Shown here: positions 38,576-51,231 of the stretch, one piece after another
How the letters are laid out: each line of letters opens with the position of its first letter
How positions within the stretch are numbered: the first letter of the stretch is position 1
Assembly: GCA_963767735.1 (NCBI GenBank)
Contig: CAVYES010000002.1
Span: 96,001-160,000, forward strand
DNA: 64,000 nt
Reading direction: 5' to 3'
DNA from: Candidatus Bathyarchaeota archaeon
Lineage (GTDB): Archaea; Thermoproteota; Bathyarchaeia; Bathyarchaeales; Bathycorpusculaceae
Made by a program: the position numbers and the translations under genes
The notes under the pieces: generated by a model
Seen by the model: only the letters and a program-made list of their open reading frames with translations
What the model was told of the DNA's origin: nothing
The model's database searches: none

Positions 38576-39514
38576 CTAAAAATTACGTTTAATGTTAAGC
38601 TTAATGTCTTTAACTTCAGCAATGATAAGATAGGAAGCAGCTAACCCCCTCCATCTGCCCCACGACTCAGCGAGTCCCCGAGCCTCATCAGCGTTAATTG
38701 GTTTTCCACCGCAATAATACCTTGAAATAACCCGCCTGACGCCCAAATCATCAGCCGGCAGCGCATCCAGCTTTTGCATCCCCCTCAGCATAGTTAACTC
38801 AGCCGTCCAAACGCCAATCCCTCTAATTGCGTCAAGCTCAGAAATGATTTCCTCGGGGTTGCAGTTTTTTAGATGTTCAAGATCTAACTTGCCCTCTACT
38901 ATTAACTTGGCTGCTCCTTGGATGTACTGGGCTTTGCGCTGGCTTAATCCGCAGCTTTGAATTTCACTGATGCTTGTGTTCGCAATATTTTGATGGGTTG
39001 GATACGCGTAGAAGCTGTCGCCGTTTAGAAAGAGCGGTTCCCCAAACTTCTTGATTATCCTTTCCTCGAGGGCGTGTGCTACTTTGATGGAGATTTGTTG
39101 CTCAACAATTGAATCAATTAGGGCTTCGAAAACCGTTGGCGTAGTCGGGTTTTTAAGTCCATACAACAGTTGAGCTATTTGCTGCATTACATGGTCGTTT
39201 TTGAGGTCTCGGTAAAAAGAGCACAAATCGAAGTCCAAGTTGAAAATGAATTTGACTGTTTCTTCAGCTTTTTTCTTGTCCTGCACTGTGAGTGGATTGT
39301 TAGATTTCAACTCAACACTTATCTTCGGGTCCTCAACAGTTCCGAGGGAAGCCACTTTTAATTGGGCAAGTTTGTCATTGATGTAGACGACTTGGCTGAA
39401 TTGGCTGTTTGTGTAGTTTCGGATTTGTTTGTCGCCGCTGCAGGATATTTGAGCGGTTAAATCAAAGTTGAAAGGTGCTAAGGCTTGAACTGTAAAGGTT
39501 TCGGTGAACGTCAA
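38576..39514 (-). CDS. alkA: DNA-3-methyladenine glycosylase II (AlkA family, HhH-GPD)
   Basis: IVEQQIS, GLSQRKAQYI, IRGIGVWTA, LPADDLGVRR. Confidence 0.92.
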   Translation of the reverse strand: MTFTETFTVQALAPFNFDLTAQISCSGDKQIRNYTNSQFSQVVYINDKLAQLKVASLGTVEDPKISVELKSNNPLTVQDKKKAEETVKFIFNLDFDLCSFYRDLKNDHVMQQIAQLLYGLKNPTTPTVFEALIDSIVEQQISIKVAHALEERIIKKFGEPLFLNGDSFYAYPTHQNIANTSISEIQSCGLSQRKAQYIQGAAKLIVEGKLDLEHLKNCNPEEIISELDAIRGIGVWTAELTMLRGMQKLDALPADDLGVRRVISRYYCGGKPINADEARGLAESWGRWRGLAASYLIIAEVKDIKLNIKRNF

Positions 39515-40445: not shown

Positions 40446-43400
40446 TTGGCGGATAGAAAAGGAATTATTGTGAGTAAAACTAAAAAAAAGCAAGAAAGCA
40501 GAAAAAACGAAGCTCGTAGCAGCCAAGTTAAACCGATTTTTCCGATTGCAGGTTTAGGTGCTTCTGCTGGCGGCTTGGAGGCTATCAAGAAACTTCTTGA
40601 AAGTTTACCTCAGGACACTGGCTTAGCTTTCGTTATTGTTCAGCATCTTGCCACAAACCAAGAAAGCATGCTGCCTGAAATTCTTGCGCGTTCCACCCAA
40701 ATGCCCGTTAATAAAATTGAGGATGGAATGGTAATTGAACCTAACCAAGTTTACGTGATTCCCGCTGGAAAAAACGTTACAGTAGAAAATGGTCATCTAA
40801 ACCTTGAACCAAAGGGAATTTCTCTAAAGCCCATTGATGAGTTTTTGTGTTCCTTGGCGTTAGAGCGGAAAACACATGCAATCGGCATTGTACTCTCAGG
40901 AACAGGTTCTGACGGAACTGAAGGGTTAAGAGCCGTTAAAGCTGAAGGCGGAATCACCTTCGTTCAAGATTTAAAATCCGCCCAATACCCTGACATGCCT
41001 AAAAGCGCCATAGCCGCGGAAGTCGTGGATTTCGTGCGCTCTCCAGAGCAGATTGCAGAAGAATTGTGCAGCATCGCTAAGCATCCAGAGATTACTCGCC
41101 AAAAAATTAATTTGGAAGAGCCTAAACCTCAAGAAGCTGAAAATAATCTGCAGACAATATTTACTTTGCTTCAAAGTTCATTCGGCGTCAATTTTGCCAA
41201 CTACAAAAAAACAACAATCGACCGACGAATTAGCCGTCGAATGATCTTAAACAAAATTGAAAACGTAAACAAATATGTTGCATATTTGCGGGGGCACCGC
41301 GAAGAGCAACAAGCATTGTTTAACGACATGCTGATAAGTGTAACCGACTTCTTCAGAGAACCAAACACGTTCTTGGCTCTGAAAGAAAAAGTCTTCCCAG
41401 ACCTCGTTGAGAAAAAACAGTCCAATCAAACTATAAGGGTGTGGATTCCAGGCTGTTCAACCGGCGAAGAAGTCTACTCAATAGCCATGGCACTTACAGA
41501 GTTCCTGGAAGAAAAAGGCTTGGCGTTTCCAATCTTAATTTTCGGAACCGACGTTAATGCAAAAAATATTGAGAAGGCCCGTCGAGGCATCTATCTTAAG
41601 TCCATTGAGAACGTTATCTCCCAAGATCGGTTGAAACGCTTCTTCACCGACTCAAACGGAAACTATCAGGTTGCCAAGCGGATTCGTGACAAATGCGTTT
41701 TCGCGAAACATGATATCATGCAAGACCCCCCTTTCTCTAACATGGACCTAATTGTCTGCCGCAATTTACTCATTTACCTTGAGCCTTCACCGCAAGAAAG
41801 AGTAATGGCTACCCTTAATTACGCGTTAAAACCTGAAGGGTATCTTGTTTTGGGCGAATCTGAAAGCGTCGGCAAATTTACGAGCTTGTTTGAACCGTTA
41901 ACAAAGAGAGGCGTAATTTTTAAGAAGAAAGGCGGTCAACCTAAAGCCGAATTGCCTATGCAAGCGCCCAATCCCTTTTCTAAGGAAATGGGCGCCTTGA
42001 ACTTGCCTAAAAAGGCTGATGCCCAAGCGTTGTTGAAAGATGAAGTTGACAAGCTACTATTAACACAGTTTGCCCCTGCAACATTATTAGTTAACGACAA
42101 TTCGGATATCCTTGCTGTACGCGGGCAAGTTAATCCTTACGTTTCAATAGAGCCCGGAACCCCAAGTTTCAACGTGGGCAAAATGGTGCGAAAAGATCTG
42201 CGGCCTACTGTTCAAACCGCATTATACAGAGCAAAAAAAGTTGGGAAAGATGTTAAGGAAATAGTGCACCTTGAACATGACGGAGGCCAGAAAACAGTTA
42301 GCCTTCATGTTAAACCCATAAAATTATCAAATTACGAAGAGCCCTTCTTCCTCATACTGTTTGAGGAAAAAGAAAAGGCCGCAGTTGAAGTGCAAACAAC
42401 GAAACCAACGTCTCCAAGGGACGTATTAGTGAAAGCTAAAGATCAACAAATAAGAGAGCTCAGCGAAGATTTAGAATCCACTAAGCAAACACTGCAAACC
42501 GTTATTGAGCAGCAAGAAGCAATAAATGAAGAGTTACGGTCAGCCAATGAAGAAATCCAGTCAAGCAATGAAGAGTTAATGAGCACAAACGAAGAGTTAG
42601 AGACCTCTAAGGAAGAGTTGCAGTCAGCCAATGAAGAATTAACAACGCTAAATGATGAACTTAAACAGCGAAATGGAATGCTCAAAGAATTGAACGAAGA
42701 CTTGGCTAACCTGATGAGCAATGTTGACACCGCTGTGGTCATTGTAGGCAGTGATTTTAAGATTAAACGTTTTACCGCTTCAGCTCAAGAACTTTTAAGG
42801 CTTATCCCAGAGGATGTAGGACATTCAATTTTAGGTATTCGCTTGGGCATTCCAACGGAAGAGTTGGAAAAGCCACTTTCATCGGTAATTGCCAAGAATG
42901 AGGTTGTTAGAGCAGAAATCAACGCTGGAAAAGACCGCTGGTATCAAATGCGTATCAGACCATTCATTACTGAAGAGAAGAAAATTGGCGGAGCAGTATT
43001 GTCCTTTGTAGATGTCAGCGAAATAAAGACTTTATCGCATCAAGTTAAGGAGCAAGCAGATAAGTTAGTTCAATCTGAAATTTTGGCGACAGTTGGTAAA
43101 ACCGCGGGCATGGTTGGGCATGACATCCGCAACCCGCTGCAAGCTATAACCAGCGATGTCTATTTGGCGAAGAACGAATTAGCTTCGATGCCTGAGAGCG
43201 ATGAGAAAAAGAATGCATTAGAGAGCCTGACAGAGATTGAAGAGAACACTGAGTACATCAACAAGATTGTTGCTGACCTCCAAGACTACGCAAGAATCCT
43301 AATGCCTCAGTTTACGAAAGTTAACGTTGAAAAAGTATTTCAAGAAGTATTGTCGTCTGTCACTATTCCTAAAGATGTTGCTGTATCTTATTCTATAGCA

Positions 43401-43745
43401 AATGACTTCCCAATTCTCACTCTAGATGCTTCCTATTTGAAGAGGATAATGACGAATTTAATTTCAAATGCTCTTCAAGCTATACCGAAGGAAGGAAAAC
43501 TTACAGTTGATGCCTTCTGCCAAAATGGTAGTGCAGTGATTAGCGTTGCAGACACTGGTGTAGGCATTTCTGATGAAGTCAAGGATAAGATTTTCACGCC
43601 TTTGTTCACTACTAAGTCTAAAGGGCAAGGTTTCGGTTTACCGGTAATCAAAAGATTAACGGAATCTATGGGTGGAACCGTAACTTTTGATAGCGAAAAA
43701 GGAAAAGGCGCAAAGTTCACCATCAAATTCCCCATTTCCCAATAA
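40446..43745 (+). CDS. CheB methylesterase-CheR methyltransferase-coiled coil-PAS-histidine kinase fusion
   Basis: GASAGG, VQHL, GTGSDG (CheB); PGCSTGEE, CRNLLIY (CheR); EELQSANEEL heptads; HDIRNPL, N box, DTGVGI, GQGFGL (HK). Confidence 0.92.
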   Translation: MADRKGIIVSKTKKKQESRKNEARSSQVKPIFPIAGLGASAGGLEAIKKLLESLPQDTGLAFVIVQHLATNQESMLPEILARSTQMPVNKIEDGMVIEPNQVYVIPAGKNVTVENGHLNLEPKGISLKPIDEFLCSLALERKTHAIGIVLSGTGSDGTEGLRAVKAEGGITFVQDLKSAQYPDMPKSAIAAEVVDFVRSPEQIAEELCSIAKHPEITRQKINLEEPKPQEAENNLQTIFTLLQSSFGVNFANYKKTTIDRRISRRMILNKIENVNKYVAYLRGHREEQQALFNDMLISVTDFFREPNTFLALKEKVFPDLVEKKQSNQTIRVWIPGCSTGEEVYSIAMALTEFLEEKGLAFPILIFGTDVNAKNIEKARRGIYLKSIENVISQDRLKRFFTDSNGNYQVAKRIRDKCVFAKHDIMQDPPFSNMDLIVCRNLLIYLEPSPQERVMATLNYALKPEGYLVLGESESVGKFTSLFEPLTKRGVIFKKKGGQPKAELPMQAPNPFSKEMGALNLPKKADAQALLKDEVDKLLLTQFAPATLLVNDNSDILAVRGQVNPYVSIEPGTPSFNVGKMVRKDLRPTVQTALYRAKKVGKDVKEIVHLEHDGGQKTVSLHVKPIKLSNYEEPFFLILFEEKEKAAVEVQTTKPTSPRDVLVKAKDQQIRELSEDLESTKQTLQTVIEQQEAINEELRSANEEIQSSNEELMSTNEELETSKEELQSANEELTTLNDELKQRNGMLKELNEDLANLMSNVDTAVVIVGSDFKIKRFTASAQELLRLIPEDVGHSILGIRLGIPTEELEKPLSSVIAKNEVVRAEINAGKDRWYQMRIRPFITEEKKIGGAVLSFVDVSEIKTLSHQVKEQADKLVQSEILATVGKTAGMVGHDIRNPLQAITSDVYLAKNELASMPESDEKKNALESLTEIEENTEYINKIVADLQDYARILMPQFTKVNVEKVFQEVLSSVTIPKDVAVSYSIANDFPILTLDASYLKRIMTNLISNALQAIPKEGKLTVDAFCQNGSAVISVADTGVGISDEVKDKIFTPLFTTKSKGQGFGLPVIKRLTESMGGTVTFDSEKGKGAKFTIKFPISQ

Positions 43746-46435: not shown

Positions 46436-46556
46436 ATGGCATGAAGAGCCGCAAGTTTACTGCACAATCAACTTAAGACTTAAATTAGAAATCATTGATT
46501 AGTAGCCTAATTTTCAGGATACGTTCTTAAATAACTAGTAGAGAATAAAATATTGG

Positions 46557-47156
46557 TTGAATGAGGGAAAAATATTGACCGCAGACTATCTTTTCATAGT
46601 TAGGCATGGAGAAACCGAAGCTAACGAAAAAGGAATAGAGGCAGGCCCATTGGATTACCCCTTGACTAAGAGGGGCGTGAGAGGAGCGTTGTTCATCGCC
46701 AAGACCCTCTCGAAAGTAAAGATAAATGCCGTTTACAGCAGTCCAGTGTTTCGCGCCCACGAAACTGCAAAAATTCTGGCGCGCCCTCATAAGGTGAAGG
46801 TGAAAACTCTTGAGGAACTGACTGAAGCAAAAATCAAACCCGAATTCGTAGGCAAAAAGGGCCGACATCACATACTAACCACCCCTGAAGCCTTCACAGA
46901 GACAAACAATGATCTTCTAGAACGAACAAGTAAAGCCATCGAAATCATCAAAAAAGAAGCTGAAGGAAACGTGATTATGGTTTCCCACGGCGACGTGATA
47001 ACCGCTTTGCTTGAAGGTGTGGTCGAAAGAAAAGTCAGCACCGAGAAATACTACGTTCTCGACCCTTATCCCGCCGCACTAAGCATAGTTGAAATCAAAA
47101 ATAGACCGCAACTTATCCTATACAATTATCATCGTAAGATGTTCGCCGACTTCTAA
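46557..47156 (+). CDS. Histidine phosphatase (phosphoglycerate mutase family)
   Basis: RHGET, YSSPVFRAHETA, VSHGD. Confidence 0.9.
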   Translation: MNEGKILTADYLFIVRHGETEANEKGIEAGPLDYPLTKRGVRGALFIAKTLSKVKINAVYSSPVFRAHETAKILARPHKVKVKTLEELTEAKIKPEFVGKKGRHHILTTPEAFTETNNDLLERTSKAIEIIKKEAEGNVIMVSHGDVITALLEGVVERKVSTEKYYVLDPYPAALSIVEIKNRPQLILYNYHRKMFADF

Positions 47157-47195
47157 TTCTCGACTCTGATAGGTTTGCTGTAAAAAACAGTTAAA

Positions 47196-48581
47196 ATGGA
47201 GCAAACAACTTTAGTGAACATGGCTCAAGAAGTTCCTGACGATTTAAAGGATTTAATCGTGCGTTTTGTACGAATTTATAGCGGCGTCACTGATTTAGCG
47301 CTTGATCATTACCTGAATCCTAAACCGTGGTTTATGCCGCTGAACAGTATCTTGGCGAAAAGAGAAGCTGCCCACTATTTTTTGCTTGCCGCATCGCTTA
47401 GCGACAATAGGCTTACAGGAAACCCAAGAAACATCCGAATCCTGCTCTACCATCTTTACAGCAGACTCGGAGGCAAACTATACACCACAAAAATCCCAGT
47501 GGAATTCACAGGTGAAATTCGGAAATTTGAGCAGGACATAAAAAAGCTAGATCAACTGGGAGAAGCAAAGGATGAGATTCCAGAAATATTATCCTCAGTC
47601 AACCGATTCATAGAACAGAGAGCTCATGGCGACTTAATTGAATATACAACTATGCTGAGTCAAAAAGGAAACAAGCCCAAAGACTTTGTTGAGGAACTAA
47701 TGTATAAGGTAAAAAGAATGAATAAACACCATAAAGCAAAGTCTTGGCTGTATCTTCGTTGGATGACTCGAGGTCCACCTGACTTAGGGCTTTTCCCGTA
47801 TAACCCTAAAGATTTGATGGTGCCACTTAGCACGCCTAAATTCAGAGTTTACGCTTCTTTGGGTCTTAGTGATAACGAGAATTTACCTTTCCAATTAAAC
47901 GCCAAAAATAAACCGGAAAGCTGGTGGAACGGCACTGCAGAATTTGATGATGACGCAAACAGGTTAACTAGTTTTGCCCGCTCTCTTTTTCCCGATGATC
48001 CAGCCAAAGTAGATTTTCCCTTCTTTATCTTAGGTACCTGGCTCGAAAATTCTGACTTAACACCTGTTTCTTTAGAGAGGTCTCTGCGTTTTTTCATTCA
48101 GAAATATCAGGAATTGCTTCAGCCACTTATGCGATACTTAACTGTCGTTTCTCACTACAATAAAGCGGGCGAAGAATTTGAGCTTGGAGTGTTTACCGGG
48201 TTAGAAAAAAATGTTTATGATTTTTTAAAGAACAAACAAGTGACGTTTAACTACGAGTTTATGGAATTTCGCTTATCAAAAGAAAACCCAACAACAGACC
48301 GATCTCTAACCTACAAACCAGACTTTCTATTGCCGCAACTTACAGATAAAGGCAGAAAGATTTTGCTTGAACCCCACGGAGTCAAAAACAACCTCAAAGG
48401 ATTCCTATACAAGCTCTCAACATTCCGAAAACTCTACGGCGACTACTTCTGCCTCATCCTAGTTGTTCCAGACGATTTCATTGAGGCAATCGATAAGCTT
48501 GATCCGAAGCATTTGGCGTATGACTATATTTGGAAACAAAGCGAATACAAACGCAAATATGAAAAACTTCAAAATTCATAA
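47196..48581 (+). CDS. DUF2400/TIGR02757-like (HhH-GPD-related) domain fused to a C-terminal PD-(D/E)XK nuclease
   Basis: WLYLRWMTR..PDLGL...LMVPL and FPDDPAKVDFP resemble DUF2400; LE..VY.FL....V.FNYE...YKPDF....ILLEPHG is PD-(D/E)XK-like. Confidence 0.65.
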   Translation: MEQTTLVNMAQEVPDDLKDLIVRFVRIYSGVTDLALDHYLNPKPWFMPLNSILAKREAAHYFLLAASLSDNRLTGNPRNIRILLYHLYSRLGGKLYTTKIPVEFTGEIRKFEQDIKKLDQLGEAKDEIPEILSSVNRFIEQRAHGDLIEYTTMLSQKGNKPKDFVEELMYKVKRMNKHHKAKSWLYLRWMTRGPPDLGLFPYNPKDLMVPLSTPKFRVYASLGLSDNENLPFQLNAKNKPESWWNGTAEFDDDANRLTSFARSLFPDDPAKVDFPFFILGTWLENSDLTPVSLERSLRFFIQKYQELLQPLMRYLTVVSHYNKAGEEFELGVFTGLEKNVYDFLKNKQVTFNYEFMEFRLSKENPTTDRSLTYKPDFLLPQLTDKGRKILLEPHGVKNNLKGFLYKLSTFRKLYGDYFCLILVVPDDFIEAIDKLDPKHLAYDYIWKQSEYKRKYEKLQNS

Positions 48582-48694
48582 AGATTTGCATTCTGCCGCG
48601 TGCTGAAAATTTTGTCTCCCACCTGCTGCACAATAACTGTGAAAAAGACCACAGTGTGCAAAGCCAAAGTGCCCAATGCATCTGTCCGCCTAAT

Positions 48695-50155
48695 TTAATT
48701 TATATCTTTAAAGAACAGCCGTGTCTCCCCCATTGTTTTGATGTCTAGGGCTCGGACGCGTGCTACAATAGGAAAGTCACTTACGACTTTGCCAAGTGTG
48801 AGGCAATGGTGGGGTGGCAGATCACGGGCGATCGAACGTACAGTTTCCGCATCCACGCGGGCAGCTCGGCTTACAACGTCTAAGTCGTGTTCGTTAGTGA
48901 AGTTGAAGAGAAAAATGTTGTCGGCTTGGCGATAAATCGTTTCTTGAATCGTGTCAGGCTGGTTCGTAATGAAGGTGGTGAATATGCCGAAGTGACGCAT
49001 ACGCGTTACGATGTCATCCCAGTAAGTCTCTCTTAGATAGAGATGAGCTTCTTCTGCGAAAAGAAATACTGCTTTCAGCTTCCAATTCGAGAGGGAATCA
49101 ACAAGTTTTCCAAGAGCGTATTCAACTACGATTTGTCGGTCGATGTTCGAGGTGTTTTTCAGGTTTATGACGATTGCGCCGCCTTGATCCTTGGCTTTCA
49201 AGATGCTTTCATCCAGCAATGTTGCTTCACCTGGAGCGTCGGTGAAGAAGCCTGAGTTAGCAAGGGAATGGAACCGTGAGGCTAACGCGTCGCGGACATG
49301 CTGGTTGCAGTTTAAATCGCGAATCGCCTCGCCTAGTTCCTGCATGTTCAATTTTCCTTTTTCCTTAAGCATCTTCCATATGCGACGGAACTCACGCGCT
49401 GAAGTCCCAGGCAAATGCAGTGCATTGACCAGTATGCCCATTACCGTGTTTAGGTGGAGCTGTTCGAGGGCTACTTTGAAGTTCTGCCCCGGAGTCAGGG
49501 TGTGAATTTTGTCGTAGTACATGTTTCTTTTGCCGTCATTACTCATGCCTAAGCTAGTGTATTCGCCGTTTAAGTCAAAAATGACGACAGTTGCCCTGTA
49601 ACCAACCAGGTTAACCATCAACAGCTTTGATAGATGGGATTTGCCGCAGCCTTTCTTGCCCGTTATGATATTTAACGTTCCATCTATTGCTGAAGCATCA
49701 ATCGTTAAAAGCGATGAGTCTTTGGTGCCGCCCAAAATTATGGGAAGTTTACCATCAACCTTTGCCAGTTTCATAAGCATGGGAATGGACAGTTTTTTGA
49801 TGGTTGATTGCGAACGGCTTGGAAGCCAACTGCTGCTTGGACTAAGCACTCCATTTTCCAACGTTGCCCTAATCTTGCAAATCAGCAAGCTAGCGTCTTG
49901 GATGTAAGTTATGTGGGGAGCGATTTCCATGGGGTCAATGTCTTCGCCCTGCAAGGGTTCGCCACCGTCCGGAAGAGTCCGCAAAAGCTCCTCAAGCACT
50001 CCGGGAACCGCTGCAAACTGAACATCGATGACCTGCGCAATCAAGGCTTTGGCGGCGTCTTGGTCTTCGACGAGTAGGTAGTCGCCTTTTTCAGCGCTCT
50101 CCGTTGGGAAACTGATGATTTGCAGCATGTTGCCTTCTTTTCTGTAGAGTTTCAT
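48695..50155 (-). CDS. HerA/FtsK-family ATPase
   Basis: GKKGCGKS Walker A, IFDLNGEY, LFAEEAH Walker B, TRMRHFG, TNQP. Confidence 0.88.
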   Translation of the reverse strand: MKLYRKEGNMLQIISFPTESAEKGDYLLVEDQDAAKALIAQVIDVQFAAVPGVLEELLRTLPDGGEPLQGEDIDPMEIAPHITYIQDASLLICKIRATLENGVLSPSSSWLPSRSQSTIKKLSIPMLMKLAKVDGKLPIILGGTKDSSLLTIDASAIDGTLNIITGKKGCGKSHLSKLLMVNLVGYRATVVIFDLNGEYTSLGMSNDGKRNMYYDKIHTLTPGQNFKVALEQLHLNTVMGILVNALHLPGTSAREFRRIWKMLKEKGKLNMQELGEAIRDLNCNQHVRDALASRFHSLANSGFFTDAPGEATLLDESILKAKDQGGAIVINLKNTSNIDRQIVVEYALGKLVDSLSNWKLKAVFLFAEEAHLYLRETYWDDIVTRMRHFGIFTTFITNQPDTIQETIYRQADNIFLFNFTNEHDLDVVSRAARVDAETVRSIARDLPPHHCLTLGKVVSDFPIVARVRALDIKTMGETRLFFKDIN

Positions 50156-51231
50156 GCGTAGATTTCCCCCGAGCCGAACGGACCAAAAAGCAGCCGATGC
50201 ATGTCTGGGCGGTTTATCATTTGTATGCCGTGTTTGCGTGTGATGAAGTGTTTGATGGCTAAGACTTCGTTAGCGGTGAAGGTACAGAGGATATGTGATA
50301 ACCTCAAAGTTTCAGGGTAGCTTTGCTTGTAGAGATCGTTACCGATTAACTTCTGCAAAGCAGCCATTCTCTGCTCTGACGGGGTTTCTTTATCAATATC
50401 TAAACGAAACGCAAAATTTGCCTTGTTTAAACGCGCAACATAAACATCGCCCAGCAGCGTTATCGGCGGTTTAAAATGTACACCTGTGGTTTCAAGCAGG
50501 TAGGGCGGGTCATGGTTTGGCAGCTGCTCAGTTATCAGGATGCCGTTAGCTCTAAGAGTTGTTGCTTTTGAGAATGCAAGAACGGTGCTGTCGTTTCTTC
50601 TTGCATAACCCAGAATTTCCCTGAGGCGCTGAACAGGTGTATCGATTGTGCCAGAGATTAAGGAGCCGTCAAAGAGGATTACGCCATGGCTCACGGTTTT
50701 GGCAAGCATAGTTTGCAGCCACCTCTCCAATAAGCCGGCAAGTCGCATGGGCATCTGCATGATGTTTGGGGCGGCTTGGTGGCTGGCTCCATAGCTGGTG
50801 CTGAAATAAGCGTGTTCCAGCGTATTGTAGAGAGCGTTTTTGTTTTCCTCTGTTATGTGGAATATGAATGGCCCGAGGCGCGTGTACTTGTAGCTTTGGT
50901 TTTGGCGCCACGTGGTTGCTCCCCTGATGGCCACGATTATGCCGGTGCTTGTTTCGCCTATTTTTATGGTTGAGGTGTCTATGGCGGCGATTAGGGTTTC
51001 TTGGTGGTCTGGTTTTATGGGGATTGATTGTGGTTTTAGTTGTATGCTGGAGGGGTATTGTTCGGTTACGCTGAATTGTTGCAGGTTTTGGGGGTTTAGT
51101 TGGAAGGGTTGGTGCTGGACTTGTTTTAGGGAGTGGAGGCTTTGTTCTAGGAAGCGTTGTGGGAGTGTTGTGTCGATGGTTGGTTGTGGAAAGTTATATT
51201 TGTCAGTAATTGTATATTGTTCAATCACCAT
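50152..51231 (-). CDS. NurA-family nuclease
   Basis: AAIDTS, ILFDGSL, AFSK, YPETLRLSH; translationally coupled to herA. Confidence 0.8.
   Translation of the reverse strand: MVIEQYTITDKYNFPQPTIDTTLPQRFLEQSLHSLKQVQHQPFQLNPQNLQQFSVTEQYPSSIQLKPQSIPIKPDHQETLIAAIDTSTIKIGETSTGIIVAIRGATTWRQNQSYKYTRLGPFIFHITEENKNALYNTLEHAYFSTSYGASHQAAPNIMQMPMRLAGLLERWLQTMLAKTVSHGVILFDGSLISGTIDTPVQRLREILGYARRNDSTVLAFSKATTLRANGILITEQLPNHDPPYLLETTGVHFKPPITLLGDVYVARLNKANFAFRLDIDKETPSEQRMAALQKLIGNDLYKQSYPETLRLSHILCTFTANEVLAIKHFITRKHGIQMINRPDMHRLLFGPFGSGEIYA

Follow-up and report, generated by a model that had tools for sequence, protein, structure and literature searches.

The DNA considered here, called the window throughout, is a stretch of 64,000 nucleotides from a Candidatus Bathyarchaeota genome (GenBank assembly GCA_963767735.1, contig CAVYES010000002.1, positions 96,001 to 160,000 of the forward strand). 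On its plus strand it carries a gene in which a DUF2400-type domain is joined to a nuclease domain, a fusion that we call type A to distinguish it from a paralogue, type B, located elsewhere in the same genome. The maximal open reading frame (ORF), at window positions 47196..48581, encodes 461 amino acids plus a stop. In a 22-sequence alignment the residue aligned with Met9 is the first residue of 19 full-length homologues, so the ATG at 47220 is a likelier start than 47196 and is probably the true one, giving a protein of 453 amino acids. Residue numbers below refer to the 461-residue translation.

The protein has two domains separated by a linker. An N-terminal domain with the helix-hairpin-helix (HhH)-GPD fold, of the DUF2400 type and predicted to be non-catalytic, occupies residues ~10-305 (47223..48110) and was delimited by Pfam, an AlphaFold2 (AF2) fold and hhalign. 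The linker covers residues ~306-332 (48111..48191), with a predicted local distance difference test score (pLDDT) below 50 at residues 313-332 of the full-length model. Profile and fold matches assign the remainder, residues ~333-461 (48192..48578), to a PD-(D/E)XK nuclease domain of the T7 endonuclease I type. An earlier note, made from the letters of the sequence, had listed the motifs LRWM-x-R, DLG, DP-x-K-x-DF, PLSTP, YKPDF and LEPHG, and we located every one of them in the translation. The DUF2400 hallmarks LRWMTR (residues 187-192) and PDLGL (195-199) both lie within 47754..47792; PLSTP follows at residues 210-214 (47823..47837) and a second DUF2400 hallmark, DPAKVDF, at residues 268-274 (47997..48017). 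YKPDF (373-377) and LEPHG (391-395) belong to the nuclease domain. We found 172 homologues of the type A protein, nearly all of them about 450 amino acids long and spanning both halves; the few that are named are Bathyarchaeia.

The N-terminal half matched the Pfam family DUF2400 (PF09674) with 34.8 bits (cut-off 25; E 2.3e-8) and the NCBIfam model TIGR02757 with 37.2 bits, far under the equivalog cut-off of 139.2; PF00730 was not among the Pfam matches of the protein at E<=1. The AF2 model of the protein had a pLDDT of 82.3. When its N-domain was compared with ~48,000 PDB representatives in a wide fold search (VIA-align), the best 21 rows were all enzymes of the HhH-GPD superfamily, and in a second structural comparison, taken from Foldseek's own list, the same superfamily filled 50 of 50 rows, with Z values of 9 to 16 over both searches. 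The HhH fold that had been proposed for this half of the protein was thus borne out. A Foldseek search with the whole model returned nothing at E<=0.001. The top structural match of the N-domain was QNG1/DUF2419, a queuosine-5'-monophosphate glycosylase (7u07; Z 15.9-16.1, root-mean-square deviation (rmsd) 3.8, ~252 residues aligned), which is 12% identical to it in sequence. The best DNA glycosylases were the MjOgg structure 3knt (Z 14.2) and SsOgg 3fhg (Z 13.6). Ogg 3n0u (Z 13.1) and endonuclease III (EndoIII; 2abk, Z 12.6) also matched, with MutY, AGOG, OGG1, AlkA and MagIII at lower Z than 2abk.

We also compared, by hhalign, a 47-sequence alignment of the family with a profile of 26 EndoIII proteins from Bathyarchaeia genomes. 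The two aligned over 161 columns with a probability of 67.9% and an E value of 4.9e-5. The alignment pairs VPLSTPKFRV with IAVDTHVRRL and therefore places Ser212 (codon 47829-47831) at the column of the EndoIII catalytic Asp. The helix-hairpin-helix stretch is gapped in this alignment; a Lys-rich HKAKSW ahead of LRWM was seen by eye only. Canonical DUF2400/TIGR02757 proteins, which are bacterial and ~270 amino acids long, have LRWMxR, PDLG and DPxxxD[FY] in common with type A. However, they carry P[LV]DTH, which was present in 13 of 13 bacterial DUF2400 genes fetched and agrees with the P-L/V-D-T-H given in the earlier note, and they have no nuclease domain, whereas type A combines PLSTP with a nuclease.

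Loss of the Asp extends across the fused forms. A search of 1.84 billion representatives yielded 119 relatives, and the following counts cover those with a readable motif. Thr or Ser stands at the Asp column in all 15 nuclease-fused representatives, while 38 non-fused representatives keep the Asp. Eight further non-fused representatives also have Thr or Ser; seven of these are short-tailed fragments and the other is a protein of 330 amino acids. Among 100 fused close homologues the column holds 90 T, 7 S and 3 N. The earlier claim that the usual Asp has been replaced therefore stands, both for Ser212 and for the fused representatives.

The framework around this column has been retained. Comparing 17 fused with 20 stand-alone forms in the 47-sequence alignment, and taking as conserved those columns that reach at least 80% in both groups, we found the identical residue in 25 of 26 conserved columns, among them K182, W184, R188, W189, R192, P195, D196, P210, D268, P269, D273 and G280. 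The sole exception is position 212, which is D in 20/20 stand-alone forms and either T (14) or S (3) in 17/17 fused forms. The N or H present at position 214 in all 20 stand-alone forms is likewise gone from the fused forms. In a quick maximum-likelihood tree, the 21 sampled fused forms share one side of a branch with the 330-residue non-fused row P0141 (Shimodaira-Hasegawa-like approximate likelihood ratio test, SH-aLRT, 98). On this tree, fusion and Asp loss are consistent with a single origin, and their association would then amount to one event that has long been maintained. Loss of the Asp with the framework kept is, as far as the aligned columns tell, the mark of an enzyme that has become a binding module.

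The relationship of the C-terminal half to T7 endonuclease I was weak in single-sequence searches (Pfam Phage_endo_I, PF05367, E 0.01 and 15.9 bits against a cut-off of 29.1; PDB, E 0.28). A family profile searched against the PDB retrieved four T7 endonuclease I sequences (5 entries) with E values of 4.3e-8 to 4.7e-7. Its alignment with 1m0d pairs E337 (48204) with E20, D376 (48321) with D55, E392 (48369) with E65 and H394 (48375) with K67, which defines a putative nuclease active site. Across 22 C-domain sequences E392 never varies, and conservation reaches at least 90% at E337, D376 and H394. The canonical E...PD...E-x-K signature is incomplete, with His394 in the place of the Lys; a stand-alone relative (P0227, named as Marsarchaeota) has E-A-K-G at the E392-H394 site, and His394 therefore occupies the canonical Lys position. 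Type A and T7 endonuclease I (gp3; 1m0d, 2pfj) also have the motif TY(T/K)PDFLLP in common. They differ in that the phage enzyme has Lys67 where type A has His394, in that type A is a cellular archaeal gene, and in that the type A nuclease stands behind a domain of 300 amino acids.

Modelled alone, the C-domain reached a pLDDT of 88.4, and its VIA-align fold matches were Can2 (top, Z 9.0), Bax1 (8.9), VC1899 (8.6), PspGI (8.2), Cdn1 (7.9), I-Bth0305I (7.8) and Vsr (7.4). EndoMS also appeared among the fold matches of this domain. The Z values are middling and the matches are consistent; judged from the model, the fold is PD-(D/E)XK. The nuclease assignment made in the earlier note was thereby upheld, and could be narrowed to the T7 endonuclease I type from the profile match together with the fold matches. 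Foldseek placed T7 endonuclease I 1m0d 17th for the C-domain, over 119 columns and at an rmsd of 19.7, a value that is as expected for a swapped crystal chain set against a compact model and is not a test of the relationship. T7 endonuclease I was absent from the 50 rows of both VIA-align wide searches, with the N-domain and with the C-domain. A search of the ESM Atlas with the whole protein returned nothing beyond the family's own clusters.

The type B paralogue lies at C4:559010-560146 of the same genome (3.04 Mb, 10 contigs), has 416 amino acids and is 36% identical to type A. At the Asp column it carries Thr, its nuclease domain has L-E-P-H, and it shows the same Pfam pattern, with 39.4 bits for DUF2400 and a weak Phage_endo_I match. 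Family matches were present in 114 of 120 genomes of the genus and in 73 of its 73 high-quality genomes. Matches of type A grade (E<1e-100, 60-82% identity) were found in 36/120, including the source genome, and nearly all other matched genomes of the genus had type-B-grade matches only (36-42% identity). Across the class, 32 of 301 genomes matched, mostly in two families (20/48 and 9/71); in the phylum, a C-domain profile matched 13 of 301 genomes, and one fused cluster bears Nitrososphaerales names. Type B has stable neighbours: it is followed by a ~120-residue HExxH protein (itself without a family match) in 14 of 20 loci, and in 12 of those 14 a convergent Prok-JAB gene adjoins the HExxH protein, being one gene further away in one more.

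At 8 of 41 related loci (L024, L027, L028, L031, L032, L038, L039 and L041) two ORFs stand in place of an intact type A gene, and some matches in the genus carry single in-frame stops; these could equally be real decay or assembly frameshifts. Two type A loci (L023, L025; 60-64% identity) are on short contigs of metagenome-assembled genomes labelled as Acidobacteria (Acidoferrum, Sulfotelmatobacter), for which mis-binning is likelier than gene transfer.

To describe the genomic context of type A we examined 41 other type A loci, which come from related genomes and hence are not independent. The neighbours found in the window were shared by none of them (0/41). The commonest neighbour was an OGG/AlkA-like HhH-GPD glycosylase, present at 10/41 loci and directly adjacent in 4, followed by an unnamed 200-residue protein (10/41), a beta-CASP-like protein (9/41), hydrogenase subunits (8/41) and a helicase-nuclease (7/41). 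QueT occurred within three genes of type A in 4/41 loci (L001, L003, L004, L020), with QueC next in L020. Overall, the neighbours are mostly housekeeping genes, including those for hydrogenase, TFIIB and transporters. A PADLOC scan of 120 of the 232 neighbouring ORFs, from loci L001-L021, returned few defence-specific matches, namely a single PbeA and weak PLD/DrmC-like ones, besides helicases and methyltransferases of a generic kind. Around 13 bacterial DUF2400 genes, nothing was conserved beyond close relatives.

In the window, a NUDIX gene and an OGG1/AlkA-like HhH-GPD glycosylase lie upstream of type A. The glycosylase (38576-39514, minus strand; 312 amino acids) matches PF00730 with 62 bits and OGG_N weakly, and shares 26% identity with the glycosylase found near type A at the 10 loci mentioned above. 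Close relatives have a conserved backbone of AA-kinase, ABC, FtsX, NUDIX, HerA-like and NurA-like genes and orf135, with a variable slot between the NUDIX and HerA-like genes. In the window this slot (46436-48694) holds a histidine phosphatase gene and type A; in relatives it is empty (two cases) or holds a 90-residue ORF (one), an amidohydrolase (one), CorA (one) or a histidine phosphatase with other genes (two). For three further genomes (G283, G339, G354) the fetched stretch did not show the backbone on the NUDIX side; two of these (G283, G339) carry an MrfA-like helicase and toxin-antitoxin genes (HEPN-MNT, DUF433) next to HerA. One DNA contig of a public sequencing run spans the junction between phosphatase and type A with ~98% likeness, and this arrangement is therefore common to other strains.

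From the folds, homologies, residue replacements and distribution described above, we infer that type A is a two-module DNA endonuclease composed of an N-terminal reader and a C-terminal nuclease. The reader would keep the DUF2400/HhH-GPD framework; with the catalytic Asp gone (Ser212 here, Thr in most relatives), it would therefore have lost the ability to cut the glycosidic bond. It may instead bind DNA, flip out and hold a non-canonical base, whether damaged or modified, or hold an abasic site, while the T7-endonuclease-I-type domain (E337, D376, E392 and His394) would cut the phosphodiester backbone nearby, probably as a dimer by analogy with T7 endonuclease I. We regard this reader-plus-nuclease mechanism, which is common to the repair and restriction readings set out below, as probable.

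The cellular role that would fit best is genome maintenance by cutting next to a lesion, in the manner of Vsr, endonuclease V (EndoV) and EndoMS. Vsr, EndoMS/NucS and EndoV recognise an aberrant base or base pair and cut the backbone while the base is not removed. They read the lesion through the nuclease domain itself or through other domains, and none of the three is known to use an HhH-GPD reader; Vsr and EndoMS are themselves fold matches of the type A C-domain. In such a scheme, the housekeeping function would fall to type B, and type A would be an accessory paralogue with a different specificity.

We slightly favour this lesion-directed repair nuclease over modification-dependent restriction, as a tentative choice. 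On its side are the near-universal, syntenic type B, the repair-type neighbours of type A (the OGG/AlkA-like glycosylase and the helicase-nuclease at other loci, the NUDIX gene and the glycosylase upstream in the window), and two null results: PADLOC 2023 models returned no family for the type A protein at E<=1, and viral contigs searched with two peptide patterns yielded no relative. A number of points weigh against it. Literature searches by the names DUF2400 and TIGR02757 found nothing relevant and no DUF2400 biochemistry. With His394 standing for the canonical Lys, nuclease activity is not assured. The patchy distribution of type A, its neighbours shared by none of the 41 loci and its position in a variable slot suit an accessory or defence gene equally well, and the repair-gene neighbours seen in related genomes may be inherited synteny. 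QNG1, the best structural match, works on a free nucleotide rather than on DNA. Finally, the genome also encodes three ordinary HhH-GPD glycosylases and a canonical Hjc (51.8 bits, over the cut-off), so there is no repair gap that demands type A. A more specific form of the repair reading is a speculative possibility: a new alternative excision repair in TACK archaea, in which an Asp-less glycosylase would flip the damaged base and an E-x-H nuclease would cut beside it, with type B serving the housekeeping function and type A a different lesion.

Of the rival explanations, the one that survives best assigns the same chemistry to an antiviral role. Type A would then be a modification-dependent (Type IV-like, "END-like") restriction enzyme, whose dead HhH-GPD domain senses hypermodified viral bases and whose nuclease destroys the DNA. 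The END nucleases provide a precedent: as described in PMC12191111 (bioRxiv 2025), an inactive EndoIII/Ogg sensor is fused either to McrB or to a nuclease of the PLD or the NucS-like PD-DExK kind, the last in END-Mag, and these proteins restrict phages with hypermodified DNA, END-Mag acting on phages with modified G. The paper describes them as single genes with no conserved partner, with END-PaCF1 and END-Mag among the members, and aligns the END-Mag sensor with the Ogg of Methanocaldococcus jannaschii and with archaeal Ogg 3FHG (PMC12191111); the best DNA-glycosylase matches of our N-domain were 3fhg and 3knt. Type A resembles these nucleases in having an HhH-superfamily glycosylase domain, predicted to be inactive, fused to a nuclease, which in one END member is PD-DExK. 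It differs in that its reader is N-terminal and belongs to the DUF2400 branch, a word absent from the text of PMC12191111, and in that its nuclease, which has an E-x-H site, belongs to the T7 endonuclease I type and is neither PLD nor NucS-like. The members listed for 20 clusters did not include the END-Mag accession MDV2503288.1.

Context bears on this explanation from both sides. The occurrence of type A in 36/120 genomes, in a variable slot and with different neighbours at each of the 41 loci compared with the window, would suit a defence gene, as would the toxin-antitoxin genes that occupy this flank of HerA in G283 and G339 and the PbeA-like defence gene that adjoins type A in one locus. 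However, the type A protein itself has no PADLOC match, the scanned neighbours (120 ORFs of 21 loci) are rarely defence-specific, most of their matches being to generic helicases or methyltransferases, hydrogenase, TFIIB and transporter genes are among the neighbours, and the patterns used found no relative on viral contigs. Moreover, type B is nearly universal in the genus and has stable neighbours, which is unusual for defence genes. TACK archaeal hosts, a near-universal paralogue and the lack of a defence-island context set type A apart from the END nucleases by description. On balance we consider the restriction reading possible, and somewhat less likely than repair. The earlier note had proposed a non-catalytic base-flipping sensor coupled to an endonuclease, as a possible modification- or lesion-dependent restriction enzyme: its structural premises held, while the context evidence gave no preference to defence over repair.

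A structure-specific nuclease, acting as a junction, fork or flap resolvase with the HhH-GPD domain as a mere DNA anchor like the HhH of XPF/Mus81/Hef, is in our judgement improbable. It would draw on the sequence homology between the C-domain and a Holliday-junction resolvase, on the existence of stand-alone relatives of the nuclease domain of ~130 amino acids, and on the ESM Atlas, in which the nearest named clusters for the C-domain were Phage_endo_I, at 0.88, and AHJR-like (a lead only). The canonical Hjc of the genome weighs against a resolvase role, and we rejected the idea that type A replaces this archaeal resolvase on the same ground. In addition, the fused forms keep the DUF2400 framework with only the Asp replaced, which points to ligand binding over a generic anchor.

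Still less probable is a ligand-gated nuclease, in which the dead domain would bind a free nucleotide or nucleoside (a modified one), much as queuosine monophosphate is bound by QNG1, and switch the nuclease on or off, as CARF does in Can2. In the fold searches QNG1/DUF2419 ranks first for the N-domain, above the best DNA glycosylase (Z 15.9-16.1 versus 14.2), the nuclease domain of Can2 ranks first for the C-domain, and QueT and QueC occur near type A at the loci listed above. The difference in Z is small, however, and QNG1 is larger and hence has more aligned residues; the four QueT loci are from related genomes; profile comparison ties the N-domain to EndoIII, a DNA enzyme; and the conserved neighbours include no signal-producing enzyme. 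QNG1 also differs from type A in its free-nucleotide substrate and its lack of a nuclease domain, and the titles of entries that name a substrate-trapping D231N mutant suggest that it keeps its catalytic Asp. Lastly, a glycosylase that is still active, with another residue replacing the Asp so that the base is removed and the abasic site cut, is very improbable: the conserved acidic residues D196, D268 and D273 and K182 could be cited for it, but stand-alone relatives that have the Asp conserve them just as well, so that they belong to the framework and are not replacements, and the N or H at position 214 has also been lost from the fused forms.

A non-catalytic member of the HhH-GPD superfamily that binds DNA has been described in yeast. 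Schizosaccharomyces pombe Mag2, as reported in PMC4433238, is a non-catalytic HhH-GPD paralogue that does not excise bases but binds DNA and abasic sites. It resembles the reader predicted for type A in being non-catalytic, and differs in having no nuclease domain and in belonging to another HhH-GPD family.

The principle of a dead HhH-superfamily glycosylase joined to a nuclease has been in print since 2025. In literature searches on names and themes we found in print neither a DUF2400 reader nor a T7-endonuclease-I-like E-x-H nuclease in such a protein, nor archaeal hosts, nor a pair of core and accessory paralogues. The reader-plus-nuclease mechanism would mean that, in the DUF2400 branch, a probable enzyme was converted to a reader by one change and then joined to a nuclease. 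If the repair role is true, Bathyarchaeia and Nitrososphaerales, which are abundant uncultured groups, would possess a new lesion-directed endonuclease; if it takes the form of alternative excision repair, a DUF2400-type domain would have a function assigned to it for the first time. If instead the defence role is true, the END principle would extend to archaea, to another reader branch and to another nuclease type, with a possible use as a tool for detecting modified bases. The Asp-to-Thr/Ser and Lys-to-His switches would be cheap to probe by mutagenesis.

Within the window, tRNA and Rfam scans gave no match, and a promoter and terminator scan found signals at chance level. RNA-library (metatranscriptome) contigs from two studies cover only parts of the type A gene, with 95-99% likeness; expression of the gene is possible on this evidence, which is not proof of transcription. 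Upstream of type A, at 40446-43745 on the plus strand, the window encodes a 1099-residue protein with CheB methylesterase, CheR methyltransferase, PAS, HisKA and HATPase domains, which is absent from this place in the relatives inspected.

Downstream of the slot, at 48695-51231 on the minus strand, are the genes for a HerA-like ATPase of 486 amino acids (Pfam DUF87) and an overlapping NurA-like protein of 359 amino acids (Pfam NurA E 0.0014, below cut-off). No Mre11 or Rad50 was found among the window genes annotated beside this pair. The best PADLOC match of the HerA-like ATPase was mad8, at 9e-17, and the pair may equally be a housekeeping HerA-NurA or of the defence type. A functional link between type A and the pair was considered and rejected, the pair being absent from 41/41 other type A loci. 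Of the 120 genomes of the genus, 71 encode the HerA-like protein, 89-98% identical in most, and orf135 follows in 11 of 11 related loci inspected; the HerA-NurA-orf135 block is conserved, independently of type A, in those 71 genomes.

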